From: Patescibacteria group bacterium
GTDB taxonomy: Bacteria; Patescibacteriota; Microgenomatia; UBA12405
Reading direction: 5' to 3'
Assembly: GCA_038062455.1 (NCBI GenBank)
Contig: JBBTXE010000001.1
Location: 58,371 to 122,370, forward strand
DNA length: 64,000 bases
A program made the position numbers and the translations under genes. The notes under the pieces are model-generated. The model made no database searches and was not told the origin of the DNA. It was given only the letters and a program-made list of their open reading frames with translations. Positions 4,476-46,674 of the stretch are shown here, one piece after another; position 1 is the stretch's first letter; every line of letters begins with the position of its first letter.

Positions 4476-5537
4476 ATGCCTGACCCCGACACTTTAACTA
4501 TTACCGCCGCTATTGACAAGTTAATTGCCAAAAGTAAATCTGTTCCTCTTCCCTCCGAACTAAGCAGTCGTCTTGAAGAACTTTTTTCCCAACTTCAAAT
4601 AAATTCCCGCTCCGAAGAAACATTCTGGGCTTTTTATCAGAGCACCGCCAAATACATTGATTGGATTACCCGCCTCCCTTGGAAAACTCAAAGCGACGAC
4701 ATCCTCGATACCCGGCACACCCAAGAGAAACTTGACGAAAATCATTATGGATTGCAGGATGTTAAATTAAGGATTCAGGAATATGTTTCCGTTCTATCTC
4801 TCCAAAAGACCCGTCATCCCGATCTACCCTTTCAGGCCCCCATTCTTTTATTTGTCGGATTGGTCGGCACCGGCAAAACCACCATCGCCAAATCTATTGC
4901 CGACTGTCTTAACCGAAAACTTATCCGTATTCCCTTCGGCGGTCTTGGTGATCCTCTTTATCTTCGGGGGCAGAGTCGTCTTCACCCCGAAGCCGAACCC
5001 GGAGCCATCATCCGTGGGCTGGCCACCTGCGGCACCCGAAACCCAGTTATATTACTTGACGAAATTGACAGGGTGGCTGATGGAGCTCTCAACACCATTA
5101 TGGGAGTTCTAGTTGAGCTTCTTGACCCCGAACAAAATTCCCGTTTTGCCGACTACTATCTTGATTACCCCTTTGATTTATCCCAGACCTTTTTTGTGGC
5201 CACCTGCAACAACACTTCCCGGATTGCTACCGCTGTTTTGGACCGTCTGGAAATAATTCAAATGCCTTCTTACACCGATGAGGAAAAACTTAATATAGGT
5301 CGTAGTTATCTTCTCCCCCGGGCCATCAAAGAAGCCGGTCTCAATCCGGGTGAATTAACAATTATCGACTCCGTTTGGCCCAATATTATTCGTCCCTTAG
5401 GTTTTGATGCCGGTGTCCGAACCTTAAAGCGGAATATTGAAGGACTTTGCCGCAAAACTGCCACCCTGATTTTATCCGGCCAAAAACAAGTAGTGGTTGA
5501 TGAGTCCAATGTTAAAAAATATCTGCCTCAATGGTAA
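4476..5537 (+). CDS. Lon-type AAA+ ATPase module without a protease domain
   Basis: YGLQDVKLRIQEYV, Walker A GLVGTGKTT and Walker B ILLDEIDR resemble the Lon ATPase region. The ORF ends before any Ser-Lys protease domain. Confidence 0.7.
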   Translation: MPDPDTLTITAAIDKLIAKSKSVPLPSELSSRLEELFSQLQINSRSEETFWAFYQSTAKYIDWITRLPWKTQSDDILDTRHTQEKLDENHYGLQDVKLRIQEYVSVLSLQKTRHPDLPFQAPILLFVGLVGTGKTTIAKSIADCLNRKLIRIPFGGLGDPLYLRGQSRLHPEAEPGAIIRGLATCGTRNPVILLDEIDRVADGALNTIMGVLVELLDPEQNSRFADYYLDYPFDLSQTFFVATCNNTSRIATAVLDRLEIIQMPSYTDEEKLNIGRSYLLPRAIKEAGLNPGELTIIDSVWPNIIRPLGFDAGVRTLKRNIEGLCRKTATLILSGQKQVVVDESNVKKYLPQW

Positions 5538-9893: not shown

Positions 9894-9925
9894 GTAGAGA
9901 CCCCGCCGCTGCGGGGCGTCTCTAC
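9894..9925. repeat. REP-like palindrome (GTAGAGACCCCGCCGCTGCGGGGCGTCTCTAC)
   Basis: Imperfect hairpin sharing both arms with the 28-bp palindromes at 44967 and 45285. Confidence 0.7.
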
Positions 9926-9963
9926 AAAACCATCAAAAGATATATTCAAAACAATGTGACCAA

Positions 9964-9992
9964 TTGGGAAAAAGATTCATATCATTTATAAT
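9964..9992 (+). promoter_or_regulatory. candidate proS promoter: -35 TTGGGA, 17 nt spacer, -10 TATAAT, ending 5 nt before the ATG
   Basis: The hexamers and spacing can be read directly. The geometry implies a leaderless or near-leaderless mRNA. Confidence 0.4.
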
Positions 9993-9997
9993 AGGCC

Positions 9998-11419
9998 ATG
10001 GCTAAATCTCAACTTAAAGATTTCAACACTGATCTCTCCGGGTGGTTTAATGATGTCGTTTTAAAGGCCGAATTGGCCGACTATGCCCCGATCAAAGGTT
10101 GTATGGTTATTCGTCCTTACGGCTACGCCCTATGGGAAAACATTCAGAAATTTATGGACCCGCTCATTAAAAACAGGGGAGTTGAAAATGCCTATTTCCC
10201 CCTTTTCATACCCATGCACTATCTTCAAAAAGAAAAAGAACACATCGAAGGTTTTGCCCCCTTACTGGCAGTAGTTACTATAGGAGGAGGTAAAGAATTA
10301 ACCGAAAAATTGGCCGTCAGACCAACATCAGAAATGGTTATGTACGATCTGTATAAAAAATGGTTTGGCAGTTGGCGCGATTTACCGGTTCGCCTAAACC
10401 AATGGTGCAATATCGTCCGCTGGGAAAAACGAACTTACCTTTTCCTCCGCACTTCTGAATTTTTATGGCAGGAGGGTCATTGCGCCCACCTGACCCATGA
10501 ACAAAGTCAAGAAGAAGTTATCTGGGCAATTAACATGTATCAACAAACTTATCAGGAACTTATGGCTGTTTATGGAATTATTGGAGTCAAAAGCGACTCA
10601 GAAAAATTTGCCGGCGGAGCCAAAACTTACACTTTCGAATCTTTAATGCCCAGTGGCAAATCTCTCCAGGCCTGCACCTCTCACGATTTAGGCCAAAATT
10701 TTTCTAAATCCCTGGATTGGACCGTTCAGAACAAAGATGGTCAAAAAGTTCATCCTTGGCAAAATAGCTGGGGTTTCACCACTCGCAGTATCGGTGCTCT
10801 GATTATGACCCACGGTGATGAAAACGGATTAGTTCTGCCGCCCAAAATTGCCCCAATCCAGATCATTATTGTACCCATTCCCGGCCATCAGCAAGCTATT
10901 CTAAAATCGATAGAACTTTATGAAAAACTAAAAAATAATTATCGAGTTAAATTAGACAATGTTGACGGTGAAACCGCCGGTTTCAAATTTAATAAGTGGG
11001 AACTAAAAGGAGTACCTCTCCGTTTGGAAATTGGTGATGATGACGCATCTAAAGATTTAGTTACCATTTACCGTCGTGATACCGGGGCTAAAGAAAAAAT
11101 TGGTTTACTTAATTTAGAAAAATATCTCTTCTCCACCCTAGCCGGTATCCAAAACTCTTTATTTGCAAAACATAAAAAATTTACCAACGATAATACATTT
11201 TTAGTTGATTCTTACGATGAGTTTAAAAAAATTATGAGTACCACCCGGGGATTTATTTTAGCCCATTGGTGTGAAAACCCCGGTTGTGAAAACGAAATTA
11301 AAAAAGACACCAAAGCCACCACCCGCTGTCTCCCCCTGGATTCCAAAGAAGAAGAGGGTAAATGTATTCACTGTGGCAAGATTTCCCATCATCGTTGGCT
11401 CTTTGCCCTATCATACTAA
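9998..11419 (+). CDS. proS: proline--tRNA ligase (archaeal/eukaryote-like class II form)
   Basis: 473 aa. GCMVIRPYGYALWE..., class II motifs, and a C-terminal zinc-binding CENPGCE...CIHCG. Confidence 0.93.
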   Translation: MAKSQLKDFNTDLSGWFNDVVLKAELADYAPIKGCMVIRPYGYALWENIQKFMDPLIKNRGVENAYFPLFIPMHYLQKEKEHIEGFAPLLAVVTIGGGKELTEKLAVRPTSEMVMYDLYKKWFGSWRDLPVRLNQWCNIVRWEKRTYLFLRTSEFLWQEGHCAHLTHEQSQEEVIWAINMYQQTYQELMAVYGIIGVKSDSEKFAGGAKTYTFESLMPSGKSLQACTSHDLGQNFSKSLDWTVQNKDGQKVHPWQNSWGFTTRSIGALIMTHGDENGLVLPPKIAPIQIIIVPIPGHQQAILKSIELYEKLKNNYRVKLDNVDGETAGFKFNKWELKGVPLRLEIGDDDASKDLVTIYRRDTGAKEKIGLLNLEKYLFSTLAGIQNSLFAKHKKFTNDNTFLVDSYDEFKKIMSTTRGFILAHWCENPGCENEIKKDTKATTRCLPLDSKEEEGKCIHCGKISHHRWLFALSY

Positions 11420-42555: not shown

Positions 42556-44667
42556 ATGCCCGATGCGATTCAAGTCACCAAAAACCGGATTGTAACCATG
42601 GACAAGGTCCGAAACATCGGTATTATTGCCCATATAGACGGCGGCAAAACTACCACCACCGAACGTCTCCTTTTCTATACCGGCAAAATTCACAAAATCG
42701 GTTCCGTCGATGAAGGTACTACTACCACCGATTCCATGATTCAGGAGCGGGAGCGGGGGATTACTATCCAGTCTGCCTGTATCACTACCTTTTGGAAACA
42801 ATACCGTATTAACATTATTGACACTCCCGGCCATGTTGACTTTACTGCCGAGGTTGAACGTTCTCTTCGGGTGTTGGATGGCGCCATTATGATTTTTGAC
42901 GGTAACGCCGGTGTTCAGGCCCAATCCGAAACCGTTTGGCGCCAAGCCGACAAATATGGAGTTCCCAGAATTGCCTTTGTCAATAAAATGGACAAAATCG
43001 GTGCCTCTTTTACCAAAACCCTAGACTCCATCACCCAAAAACTCCGAGCTCCGATTGTGCCGGTAGTTATCCCGGTCGGTGAAGAGCATGCCCATATCGG
43101 AGTCATCGACCTAATGGAAATGAAAATGATTGTTTACGACAAAGATCCCGAGGGTATGGAATTCAGTGTCAAAGAAATTTCTCCGGAATATGCCAAAACG
43201 GCGAAAATTGCCCGGGCCCACATGGTCGAAAAAATTTCCGGTGTGAATGATTTGTTGATGGAGAAATTTCTAAATAACCAGGATATTTCTGTTCTCGAAC
43301 TTAAATCCGCTCTCCGTCAAGCCACTATTGCCCGCAAACTCTTTCCGGTTTTTTGTGGCGCCGCTTGGCGTAACAAAGGTATTCATCCGATTCTTGACGC
43401 TATTATTGACTATTTACCATCTCCTGTCGATTTGCCCCCAATCGAAGGTTTTGATGTCAACGGTGGTGACAAAATCACCCGAAAACCGGAAAACAATGAT
43501 CCTTTTTCCGGTCTCTTATTTAAAGTCCAATCCGATCCCCACGTTGGCACTCTATCTTATGTCCGGGTTTATTCCGGCGTGGTCAAATCCGGCTCTGAAG
43601 TCTATAACTCTACCCGCCAAAAAAGTGAACGTATCGGCCGCCTATTATTAATGCATGCCGACAAAAGGGAGGGGATTGAGGAAGGTTTTGCCGGAGAAAT
43701 TATTGCTTGTATTGGCCTCAAAGAATCCTACACCGGCGACACTCTCTGCGACAAATTTGCCCCCATTTCCCTGTCTCCGATTCAATTTCCCGATCCGGTA
43801 ATCTCACTTTCTATCGAACCGGAAACAACCGATGATCAGGAAAAAATGAGTCAAGCCCTCAACCGGCTGAGTCAGGAAGATCCCACTTTTAAAGTTTCCT
43901 ACAATCAGGAAACCGGTCAATCAATTATTGCCGGTATGGGTGAACTGTATCTGGAAATTATCGTTGACCGTCTCAAGCGTGAATTTGGCGTCAATGTTAA
44001 AACCGGTGTCCCCCAAGTGGCCTACCGGGAAACTATTTCGGCTCACGCCGAAGGCGAGGGAAAATATATCCATCAGTCCGGCGGTCATGGTCAATATGGC
44101 CACTGTAAAATCAAAGTCGAACCCAAAAACCGCGGTGAAGGGATTGAATTTGTCAATGCTATCAAAGGTGGAGCCATTCCCGGCAACTTTATTCCGGCTA
44201 TTGAAAAAGGAGTCCGGGAAACTTTAACTAAGGGAATTATTGCCGGTTATCCGGCAACCGATATTAAAGTTACCGTCTTTGATGGTTCCTACCATGATGT
44301 TGACTCTTCGGAACAGGCCTTTAAATTAGCCGGGTCCTACGCCATCAAAGACGCCTTTATTTTAGCCAGCCCCATAGTTCTCGAGCCCATCATGAAAATG
44401 GAGGTAGCCACTCCCTCCGACTTTTTAGGCACTGTTATCGGCGATCTTTCTTCCCGACGCGGTCAAATTGGCGGTACTACCGATTCTTTTGGTTTCACCA
44501 TCGTCAATGTCACTATTCCTCTAGAAGCTGTTCGCGGCTACGCCACCGTCATTCGGTCACTCACTCAAGGCCGCGGTTCTTTTTACATGGAACCCAGCCA
44601 CTACGATCCCGTCCCCCGCGATATCCAGGAAAAACTGACCATCAAAACTTCTGACAAAAAAGAATAA
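42556..44667 (+). CDS. fusA: translation elongation factor G
   Basis: 703 aa. AHIDGGKTTTTE, DTPGHVDF, NKMD GTPase motifs and domains II-V. Confidence 0.97.
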   Translation: MPDAIQVTKNRIVTMDKVRNIGIIAHIDGGKTTTTERLLFYTGKIHKIGSVDEGTTTTDSMIQERERGITIQSACITTFWKQYRINIIDTPGHVDFTAEVERSLRVLDGAIMIFDGNAGVQAQSETVWRQADKYGVPRIAFVNKMDKIGASFTKTLDSITQKLRAPIVPVVIPVGEEHAHIGVIDLMEMKMIVYDKDPEGMEFSVKEISPEYAKTAKIARAHMVEKISGVNDLLMEKFLNNQDISVLELKSALRQATIARKLFPVFCGAAWRNKGIHPILDAIIDYLPSPVDLPPIEGFDVNGGDKITRKPENNDPFSGLLFKVQSDPHVGTLSYVRVYSGVVKSGSEVYNSTRQKSERIGRLLLMHADKREGIEEGFAGEIIACIGLKESYTGDTLCDKFAPISLSPIQFPDPVISLSIEPETTDDQEKMSQALNRLSQEDPTFKVSYNQETGQSIIAGMGELYLEIIVDRLKREFGVNVKTGVPQVAYRETISAHAEGEGKYIHQSGGHGQYGHCKIKVEPKNRGEGIEFVNAIKGGAIPGNFIPAIEKGVRETLTKGIIAGYPATDIKVTVFDGSYHDVDSSEQAFKLAGSYAIKDAFILASPIVLEPIMKMEVATPSDFLGTVIGDLSSRRGQIGGTTDSFGFTIVNVTIPLEAVRGYATVIRSLTQGRGSFYMEPSHYDPVPRDIQEKLTIKTSDKKE

Positions 44668-44675
44668 AATGTTCT

Positions 44676-45278
44676 GTGGTCGTTGACGATCCTTTTCGTT
44701 TTGCTGATAAATTTGCCGTCAAATCATCCCGTTTACCAAATTGGGACTACTCATCTCCCGGAATATATTTCAATACTATTTGCACTCTCAATCACAATAA
44801 TTTCTTTGGAAAAATTGTTGATAATAAAATGGTTTTGTCGACTTGCGGTCAGATTGCTCGCGATGAATTAATTAAAACAATTCAAATTCGAAACAATATT
44901 TCCATCGACCTGTGGGTAATAATGCCCAACCATATTCATCTGTTAATCACCATTTATGATTGTCATGTAGAGACGCCCCGCGGGGCGTCTCTACGAATAA
45001 ACCCCACGTCTCTACAGCAAAATAAAGTGATAACCATATCTCAAGAAAAACGCGAGTTGTTTCAGAGGTTAAATACCAAATCAAATCAAATAGTCCCGAA
45101 AATGATTAATCAATTTAAATCACGTGTCACTCTGGTTTGCAGACAAAACAATTTCTTTTTCGCCTGGCAATCTCGTTTTTATGATGAAATCATCAAAGAC
45201 AATCAACGGTTTATGGTAGTTAAACACTATATTCAAAACAATATTGCTAACTGGAACAAAGATAAATTCTATCGATAA
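44676..45278 (+). CDS. IS200/IS605-like HUH Y1 transposase, REP-associated (RayT-like)
   Basis: HUH motif PNHIHLL and the catalytic Tyr region WQSRFYDEII. Flanked by, and interrupted in-frame by, 28-bp palindromes. The GTG start is uncertain. Confidence 0.7.
   Translation: MVVDDPFRFADKFAVKSSRLPNWDYSSPGIYFNTICTLNHNNFFGKIVDNKMVLSTCGQIARDELIKTIQIRNNISIDLWVIMPNHIHLLITIYDCHVETPRGASLRINPTSLQQNKVITISQEKRELFQRLNTKSNQIVPKMINQFKSRVTLVCRQNNFFFAWQSRFYDEIIKDNQRFMVVKHYIQNNIANWNKDKFYR
44967..44994. repeat. REP-like perfect 28-bp palindrome GTAGAGACGCCCCGCGGGGCGTCTCTAC (inside the RayT-like ORF)
   Basis: Self-complementary. Translated as VETPRGASL. The next ~22 nt resemble the sequence following the 45285 copy. 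Confidence 0.9.
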
Positions 45279-45284
45279 TAATCC

Positions 45285-45312
45285 GTAGAGACGCCCCGCG
45301 GGGCGTCTCTAC
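45285..45312. repeat. REP-like perfect 28-bp palindrome (downstream of the RayT-like ORF)
   Basis: Identical to 44967-44994. Confidence 0.9.
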
Positions 45313-45440
45313 AACTAACCCCCACATCTTTACTGATTTGAATTGATAAGAGAAATTGTAAATCAGCCATATTGCAAAGCTAGCCACCTACTGATACAAT
45401 TCTAAAGCGTTTTCCGCTATTTCTTAATGGTGGGATAATG

Positions 45441-45501: not shown

Positions 45502-46674
45502 ATGGCAGGCACATATCAAAGAACCAAGCCCCATGTTAATGTCGGCACTATCGGTCACGTTGACCATGGTAAGACTACCTTAACTGCGGCTATTACAAAA
45601 ATTCAGGGGAATCCCAAGTCCTATGCGGATATTGCTAAGGGTGGAACCGTTCGTGACGCTAGCAAAATCGTTACCATCGCTATCTCTCACGTTGAATACG
45701 AGACTGCCAAAAGGCACTATGCCCACATCGATTGTCCCGGTCACGCTGATTATGTCAAAAACATGATCACCGGTGCCGCTCAAATGGACGGTGCTATTCT
45801 CGTCGTTTCTGCTCCTGACGGCCCCATGCCTCAAACCCGTGAGCACGTATTGCTTGCCAAACAAGTCAATGTCCCGGCTCTGGTGGTTTATCTTAACAAG
45901 TGTGATTTAGTCACTGATCCGGAATTCTTAGATCTCGTCGAAATGGAAATCCGCGATCTTCTCAAGAAATATCAATATCCGGGTGATGAAATCCCCATTA
46001 TTCGCGGTTCGGCTCTCAAGGCCCTTAACGGTGATGCCGACGGGATTGAATCCATTAAAAAATTAATGGAAACCCTCGACACTTATATTTCCGAGCCCAA
46101 GCGCGAACTTGACCAGCCCTTTTTGATGCCTATCGAGGACGTTTTTTCCATTAAGGGTCGTGGCACCGTTGCCACCGGTCGTATCGAGCGTGGTGTTGTC
46201 AAAGTCAACGACGAAATTGAAGTTGTCGGCCTTCGCGACACCAAAAAGATCGTCGTCACCGGTGTGGAAATGTTCCACAAATCACTTGATCAGGGTCAGG
46301 CCGGCGACAATGTCGGTATTCTTCTCCGCGGTGTTGAAAAAGACGATATCGAACGCGGCCAGGTTTTGGCCAAAATCGGTACCATCACTCCTCACACCGA
46401 GTTTAAAGCCGAAATCTATTTACTTAAAAAAGAGGAAGGCGGTCGTCACACTCCGGTTTTTACCGGTTACCGGCCCCAGGTATTTATTCGGACCACCGAT
46501 GTTACCGGTGAAGTTACTCTTCCCGAGGGAGTAGAGATGGTTATGCCGGGAGATAATGCCAATGTTTTGGTTAAATTAATCAAAGCTGTCGCCATGGAAA
46601 AAGGTCAGCGCTTCGCTATCCGCGAGGGCGGTCTGACCGTTGGTGCCGGTGCTATCACCGAAATTATTAAATAA
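45502..46674 (+). CDS. tuf: translation elongation factor Tu
   Basis: 390 aa. [22 protein letters not shown] motifs. Confidence 0.98.

Follow-up and report, generated by a model that had tools for sequence, protein, structure and literature searches.

A gene for a predicted RayT/TnpAREP-type Y1 HUH protein, which stands between fusA and tuf in a bacterial genome of the Candidate Phyla Radiation (CPR), carries within its own coding sequence, and in frame, a perfect copy of the repetitive extragenic palindromic (REP) element that also lies immediately downstream of it. The gene was encountered in a stretch of 64,000 nucleotides (nt) from a Patescibacteria group bacterium (assembly GCA_038062455.1, contig JBBTXE010000001.1, positions 58,371 to 122,370), here called the window, in which all of the features given below lie on the + strand; the host is a CPR bacterium, which probably belongs to Candidatus Shapirobacteria. 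This arrangement was already published in 2018 for subclass 2.4 of the TnpAY1 proteins, and the window gene is a further member of that subclass, in a CPR lineage. Taking all of the evidence together, we consider it likely that the locus represents a subclass 2.4 (RAYT group 4) REPtron, in which the internal REP is tolerated in a permissive loop of the protein and is kept in the REP family of the genome by turnover.

The internal REP, GTAGAGACGCCCCGCGGGGCGTCTCTAC, was located at 44967..44994 by pattern scan, repeat comparison and folding. It is a perfect, GTAG-footed palindrome of 28 nt that encodes residues V98-L106 (VETPRGASL) in frame, as the original prediction, made from the letters of this DNA alone, had proposed. 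The second part of that proposal, an identical copy 7 nt after the stop codon, is likewise borne out at 45285..45312, where the feet of the palindrome (GTAGAGACG...CGTCTCTAC) conform to the double-foot pattern (5' GT[AG]G ... C[TC]AC 3'); being double-footed, the palindrome presents a GTAG foot on both strands. These two copies are the sole matches in the 64 kb at three or fewer mismatches, and chance is rejected as their origin, since none of 100 dinucleotide-preserving shuffles contained any match to the palindrome. The similarity claimed for the ~22 nt that follow each palindrome is also real: 44967-45015 and 45285-45333 form a direct repeat of 49 nt with 90% identity, made up of the 28-nt REP and a 21-nt tail, and each tail closes by repeating the right half-arm for a third time (CGTCTCTAC / CATCTTTAC). 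In the tail of the internal REP (44995..45015, residues ~107-113) an A/T-rich spacer precedes CCCCACGTCTCTAC, which directly repeats the right half-arm, whilst direct repeat comparison identifies a degenerate right half-arm, CCCCACATCTTTAC, in the tail of the downstream REP (45313..45333). The same architecture of REP plus 21-nt tail recurs in loci L083, L084 and L094. When folded as single-stranded DNA (ssDNA), the two REP hairpins have energies of about -14 kcal/mol each, with z-scores of -4.9 and -5.9 relative to shuffled sequences. Searching the window with a looser pattern adds a third, imperfect double-foot REP, GTAGAGACCCCGCCGCTGCGGGGCGTCTCTAC, at 9894..9925 (-13 kcal/mol, z -5.3). Comparison with Rfam gave no credible match (best E = 0.52, 23 bits versus a gathering score of 229), and the downstream REP was rejected as an intrinsic terminator on the + strand because no T-run follows it and the terminator scan scores the minus strand only.

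Profile searches and structure prediction support the assignment of the open reading frame (ORF) at 44676..45278 (200 amino acids (aa), GTG start) to the RayT/TnpAREP-type Y1 HUH proteins, in agreement with the identity first suggested for it. The ORF scores 26.7 with Pfam Y1_Tnp (PF01797), for which the gathering cutoff is 23, and a profile built from 36 homologues has the E. coli TnpAREP protein (4er8) as its top sequence match in the PDB. An AlphaFold model of the protein (pTM 0.70) is matched by Foldseek, with a probability of 1.00, to the ISDra2, TnpAREP and IS608 transposases (2xm3, 4er8 and 2vic, respectively). The HUH motif, P84-N85-H86-I87-H88 (44925..44939), has the NH[IFV]H signature and aligns to the HUH strand of 4er8, with P84, N85, H86 and H88 in invariant columns; W164-Q165, Y185 and N189 are also invariant in the alignment of 36 sequences, in which position 169 (tyrosine in the window protein) is either Y or H. 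The segment RFYDEII, originally taken for the catalytic tyrosine motif, belongs instead to the WQxRFxD region (W164 Q165 S R F Y D E, 45165..45188) described in PMC6006769, which aligns to W94/Q95/E100 of 4er8. The catalytic tyrosine is the invariant Y185 of the motif Y185-I-Q-N-N-I (45228..45245; YIxNN[P/V/I]), since in the same alignment, which places W164-Q165 on W94-Q95, the tyrosine of HYIQNN falls on the catalytic Y115. The position of the palindrome between the HUH motif and the tyrosine holds with the true residue, the spacing from H88 to Y185 being 97 aa. The last position of this motif is occupied by I in the window protein and by P, V or I across the clade of 36 sequences. The window protein retains every family-invariant residue, and for this reason the gene looks intact.

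The residues encoded by the internal REP and its tail are predicted to form a disordered loop. In the AlphaFold model residues 94-121 have no secondary structure, the local confidence score (pLDDT) falls below 50 at residues 99-119, a stretch that corresponds to the REP and its tail, and the loop is placed between the HUH strand (residues 86-93) and a helix (residues 123-132). Residues 96-143 of the window protein correspond to only ~10 residues in 4er8, and the segment around residues 95-115, which the original prediction had proposed to check for this, is an insertion relative to E. coli TnpAREP and the IS200-type proteins.

These features are those of TnpAY1 subclass 2.4, which corresponds to group 4 of Bertels and has been described as having the motifs NH[IFV]H, WQ and YIxNNP, a median length of 194 aa and a median distance of 88 aa between HuH and Y (Quentin, Siguier, Chandler & Fichant 2018, BMC Genomics 19:475, PMC6006769, including its Table 1). 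According to these authors, members of the subclass occur in Cyanobacteria, Bacteroidetes and various other phyla and contain a variable insertion between beta3 and alphaC, with short DNA repeats in the variable region. Their REPs are of the 'double foot' kind (5' GT[AG]G, 3' C[TC]AC) and are inserted in frame in tnpAREP between HuH and Y, and the authors regard the insert as a peripheral extension that affects activity little. The same source gives Y---NP as the class 2 signature and ties the WQxRFxD region to recognition of GTAG in E. coli TnpAREP. The window gene resembles subclass 2.4 in its motifs (NHIH, WQ and YIQNN), in its length (200 aa compared with ~194), in an enlarged HuH-Y distance (97 aa compared with the median of 88), in the presence of a double-foot REP both next to the gene and in frame between HuH and Y, in the short repeats of its variable region and in a low number of REP copies. 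It differs in that the residue after NN is I rather than the P of the published motif YIxNNP, and in its CPR host, its location at a fusA-tuf junction and the 21-nt tail with a half-arm. The analyses of reading frame, covariation, concerted evolution and nucleotide identity that follow were carried out here and do not appear in the portions of PMC6006769 that were consulted. For Group 4, Bertels et al. 2017 (PMC5581495) reported ~14 occurrences per replicon of the flanking 16-mer, and the small number of REP copies seen here agrees with this low abundance. Our search of the literature found no paper on subclass 2.4 beyond that of 2018, and none on RayT genes in Candidate Phyla Radiation bacteria.

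Two other groups of enzymes offer points of comparison. Among RayT/TnpAREP proteins, that of E. coli alone has been demonstrated to bind and cleave REP ssDNA with specificity for both sequence and structure (work cited in PMC6006769 and PMC3733652). This protein (4ER8, subclass 2.2) shares with the window system the Y1 HUH fold, a GTAG-footed hairpin as the presumed substrate, residues equivalent to W94/Q95/Y115 and flanking cognate REPs. In contrast, its REPs are long, bulged and single-footed and are found only outside the gene, it has ~10 residues where the window protein has 48 (residues 96-143), and its motifs are DHLH, WE and YIHYNP. The TnpA proteins of the IS200/IS605 family (IS608 and ISDra2; subclass 1.1), which provide the top Foldseek matches, are alike in fold, chemistry and recognition of ssDNA hairpins. 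However, their tyrosine motif is Y[IV]ENQ, as opposed to YIQNN, and their two distinct end hairpins flank an entire multi-copy mobile element, often with tnpB. The RayT ORF is not matched by NF033573 (E = 0.18, 12 bits versus a cutoff of 55), no hairpin is present upstream of the RayT gene, where fusA ends 9 nt before the start codon, and the second RayT copy in the window is only a relic of 21 codons with 48% identity, unlike the multi-copy identical elements of the IS200/IS605 family.

Family-wide comparison of the DNA shows that conservation of the palindrome is at the level of nucleic acid rather than of the encoded peptide. The protein search yielded 226 relatives, of which the named representatives are Candidatus Shapirobacteria. 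For the analysis at the nucleotide level we combined 80 loci from species genomes with four Shapirobacteria loci and the window gene, from which 64 RayT genes could be cleanly delimited; a double-foot REP was called when it lay between HUH and WQ with no more than one mismatch per foot. All members of the 36-sequence alignment contain a hairpin-type peptide at one place, ~8 residues past HLLI, in the forms VETPxxASL, CRDVxxNVST and VETPRWDVST, and a recognisable REP peptide is present at the same codon position in 98 of the 104 near-clade proteins (those with HUH and WQ motifs), the other six being degenerate. The classes of peptide counted in the near clade (VET..xSL, 54; xRD..VST, 33; VET..VST, 14; VET..RLY, 2) are produced by one set of DNA arms, GTAGAGAC...GTCTCTAC, in different reading frames. 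Among the family genes as a whole, which represent many phyla, 38 of 64 have at least one double-foot REP between HUH and WQ, and single-foot REP pairs are found in this segment in several others. The GTAG foot begins at codon position 1 (the VET frame) in 26 cases and at position 2 (the xRD frame) in 14, and never at position 3, which would give a TAG stop. Elsewhere in the extended ORFs of the 64 genes there are only two double-foot matches, both of which, we think, lie upstream of the true start.

Base pairing in the stem of the palindrome is likewise maintained. Twenty-five distinct internal 28-mers, selected by their feet only, have a nearly invariant 8-nt foot and upper six base pairs that covary: 97.4% of cells pair, compensatory double changes occur in 7 of 14 pairs, the covariation score was reached by none of 500 shuffles, and the signal collapses in slid controls. 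As these sequences were chosen by the feet only, the pairing of the upper stem constitutes independent evidence. Perfect upper stems are found in 29 of 40 internal copies and 37 of 53 external ones, the internal copies being no less intact than the external. The cores of internal REPs have a mean similarity of 0.87 to the REPs that flank their own gene, compared with 0.54 to those of other loci, and the match between internal and flanking REPs is clear in ~11 of the 13 loci where the two coexist, although a few of the hairpins counted are possibly not true REPs. The internal REP is therefore shown to be a member of the REP family of its own genome.

Two points of the original prediction call for comment. 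It would have been refuted by a VETPRGASL segment conserved as a protein feature independent of palindromic DNA; the segment does stand at the same place in homologues, yet what is conserved there is palindromic DNA read in two frames and not a peptide motif. It had also supposed that a whole REP unit was copied into the gene. A REP is indeed inside the gene and in frame, but a private, recent copying event is not upheld, since the REP is found clade-wide at one codon position, and the window locus accordingly does not demonstrate that a unit moved into the gene from the site downstream.

By analogy with E. coli TnpAREP and the TnpA proteins of IS608 and ISDra2, the window protein would be a single-domain HUH/Y1 ssDNA endonuclease-ligase that binds its cognate REP folded as a hairpin on ssDNA. 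The GTAG foot would be read via the WQxRFxD region, and cutting and rejoining beside the hairpin would be carried out by Tyr185 together with a metal site formed by His86/His88. The internal REP occupies the variable segment that joins the HUH strand to the following helix, a segment that is long in subclass 2.4 and short in E. coli TnpAREP, and the protein presumably tolerates it because the encoded peptide is predicted to be disordered, with only those frames surviving that avoid the TAG stop. The internal REP would thereby remain an ordinary member of the genomic REP family, still subject to RayT-mediated turnover or to gene conversion with further REPs, and either process could keep it identical to the flanking copy. 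Recognition by RayT may in addition constrain the sequence of the REP itself.

Several observations weigh against this explanation. The best NCBIfam model for the protein, REP_Tyr_transpos (NF047646), which was probably built on proteobacterial RAYTs, is matched at 41.5 bits, below its equivalog cutoff of 80 bits, and we know of no subclass 2.4 protein with measured activity or other characterisation. There are three REP copies in the 64 kb of the window, all of them tied to a RayT gene or relic, with no visible spread. Furthermore, passive tolerance is insufficient by itself to account for the distribution and identity of REPs. Their density is ~3 per kb between HUH and WQ and falls to 0.043 per kb in the far flanks that surround these genes, a difference of ~70-fold (the segment is denser also than the near flanks). 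The internal REP is near-identical among genes that have diverged to the point where third positions are nearly saturated: it matches that of the window gene at 28 of 28 nt in L082 (protein identity 63%, third-position identity 46%), and at 27 of 28 nt both in L085 (57% and 52%) and in L083 (53% and 47%), and the exact 28-mer is also present in three further RayT genes with 48-57% protein identity. It occurs in essentially all members of the near clade at the same codon position, and many loci have an internal REP with none within 300 nt outside the gene.

The enrichment between HUH and WQ, the near-identity across diverged genes, the universal and fixed position in the near clade and the loci without a nearby external copy, together with the retention of stems by compensatory changes, all favour an alternative in which selection maintains the internal REP as a cis-acting element of the gene. 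It might serve as an autoregulatory operator or attenuator, with RayT binding to the hairpin within the DNA or mRNA that encodes it, or with the 14-bp stem limiting full-length expression; or it might be a protected 'master copy' that serves to renew the REPs of the genome. The RayT gene and its substrate would in that case form a single self-referential unit. We regard this alternative as rather unlikely, although it deserves consideration. A double-foot copy is lacking from 26 of the 64 family genes, some of which are still flanked by REPs (for example L031, L062, L068 and L073); the position of the copies ranges from 6 to 76 codons past the HUH motif, and their number per gene from 0 to 3. 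The same REP occurs inside long ORFs of unrelated housekeeping genes, and residence in frame therefore needs no special function. The identity of internal REPs across genomes could be explained by recognition by RayT constraining the whole REP family, and the copies are treated in PMC6006769 as insertions with little impact on the activity of the protein.

It is highly improbable that the internal and downstream REPs are instead the ends of an excisable unit of 318 nt (44967-45284), comparable to an IS200/IS605 element, whereby RayT would excise or invert the portion of its gene coding for the catalytic tyrosine, as a self-limiting switch. The 49-nt direct repeats do bracket the tyrosine-coding half of the gene, and a REP-bounded 3' fragment of a RayT gene at 9894-9991 shows rearrangements that end at a REP. 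However, no excised or deleted variant was seen, the same arrangement is present in a contig of 99.2% identity (L001), many homologues possess the internal REP without a downstream one, and the relic retains the 3' end of the gene, the opposite of the leftover that excision would be expected to produce. The remaining possibilities, that VETPRGASL is a motif under selection at the amino-acid level to which the palindrome is incidental, or that the palindrome is due to chance or faulty assembly, can safely be dismissed, since, although every close homologue has the segment at an equivalent position, the peptide motif is rejected by the unrelated peptides that the same arms encode in two frames and by covariation at the level of base pairs, the peptide lies in a predicted disordered loop, the shuffles produced no match, and an independent assembly of the same species (L001) has REP-like sequence at both sites.

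The window locus extends a published feature of subclass 2.4, the presence of in-frame REPs in tnpAREP, to a lineage of the CPR whose genome is very small and holds few REPs. At the same time the use of two frames, the compensatory stems, the identity across saturated synonymous sites and the enrichment over the flanks sharpen, as a question, the published interpretation of these copies as passive insertions in a permissive loop. A small genome with a handful of REPs would provide a clean system in which to ask what RayT does to REPs.

Contig L001, which is 99.2% identical to the window, with 121 gap openings in 20 kb and 2.4x coverage, contains the corresponding region at 10001-10720 (window 44676-45335). 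Its internal REP reads GTAGAGATCGACCGCGGGGCGTCTCTAC, its downstream REP is shortened to 24 nt, and a one-base deletion in an A-run truncates the RayT ORF. Seven of the 17 mismatches in the 20 kb fall in or beside the two REPs; real variation and hairpin-induced sequencing error are not separable here, and L001 was rejected as an independent natural variant of the REP.

The relic of a second RayT gene, identified by tblastn at 9923..9991, consists of the last 21 codons (YKTIKRYIQNNVTNWEKDSYHL, followed by the stop), which have 48% identity to RayT residues 179-199; it abuts the imperfect REP, and 7 nt separate its end from proS, which lies downstream. Upstream of the segment 9894-9991 there is no N-terminal part of a RayT gene. 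An intact RayT homologue lies directly upstream of proS in L084, and this, taken with the REP-abutting relic at the same site, indicates from sequence comparison that a second RayT gene once stood at proS in the window lineage and has been mostly lost, apparently by a deletion that ends at the REP.

Copies of the palindrome are also found elsewhere, and their absence would have counted against the original prediction. For the organism itself the analysis covered the 64-kb window and an overlapping contig of 72 kb. Besides the degenerate third copy in the window, a related contig of 949 kb has six exact copies, two inside RayT genes and four with no RayT match in the recovered stretches. The exact 28-mer was recovered in 32 metagenome stretches in all, and L084 and L085 have one intergenic REP copy each. 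Six REPs outside RayT genes (L087, L093, L096, L098, L105 and L116), four of them on one 949-kb contig, have ~50 nt of similar flanking sequence on each side, and on account of these common flanks the dispersed unit in those genomes appears to be a longer element of ~130 nt with the REP as its core. This longer element has no match in the window.

The identical 28-nt REP was also observed within long housekeeping ORFs of metagenome contigs (L100, 2518-2545; L112, 1625-1652; L111, 9176-9203; L104, 351-378; L114, 14551-14578), which, from reading of their translations, encode IF-2 (on two contigs) and proteins resembling leucyl-tRNA synthetase, dihydrouridine synthase (Dus-like) and KsgA. GTAG REPs have been reported to occur inside coding regions (Di Nocera et al. 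2013, PMC3733652), and these metagenome ORFs conform to that description. The window gene and its relatives differ in that the gene which hosts the REP is its own presumed transposase, and in that the REP is clade-wide and fixed in position rather than sporadic.

Direct copies of the adjacent half-arm are often located beside REPs, for example in L084 (10634-10833), L053 (~5280-5350), L005 (7100-8000) and the window (44995-45015 and 45313-45333). An array of 8.7 tandem units of 21 nt (CTACGTCTCTACATATTCAAA) follows the downstream REP of L084. A half-arm copy lies no more than 40 nt away from 33 of the 147 REPs counted over all loci, compared with 5 in a control using the opposite arm. These copies are probably what Fig. 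S6 of PMC6006769 presents as 'short repeats', and it is possible that they arise by hairpin slippage or by iterative cleavage and joining.

In the window the RayT gene splits the fusA-tuf junction, as first noted: fusA (EF-G; 42556..44667) has its stop codon 9 nt ahead of the RayT start, and tuf (EF-Tu; 45502..46674) follows, both genes being taken from the ORF list, with the Pfam families of the identical gene in L001 as further evidence for fusA. The element was initially given as 44676-45335; its start is correct, whereas the ORF ends at 45278 and the interval to 45335 takes in the downstream REP and its tail. A conserved location between fusA and tuf was rejected, as four close homologues are situated elsewhere (between peptidase genes; beside a cupin gene; between RNase J and proS; and after dnaB) and the position is common only to the 99.2%-identical contig L001. 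The fusA-tuf junction is one lineage-specific position of a gene that is variably placed in related genomes. Between the downstream REP and tuf there is a promoter-like site (45372-45400) with TTGCAA, a spacer of 17 nt, TACAAT and an extended TG, from which tuf may have a promoter of its own downstream of the inserted RayT gene.

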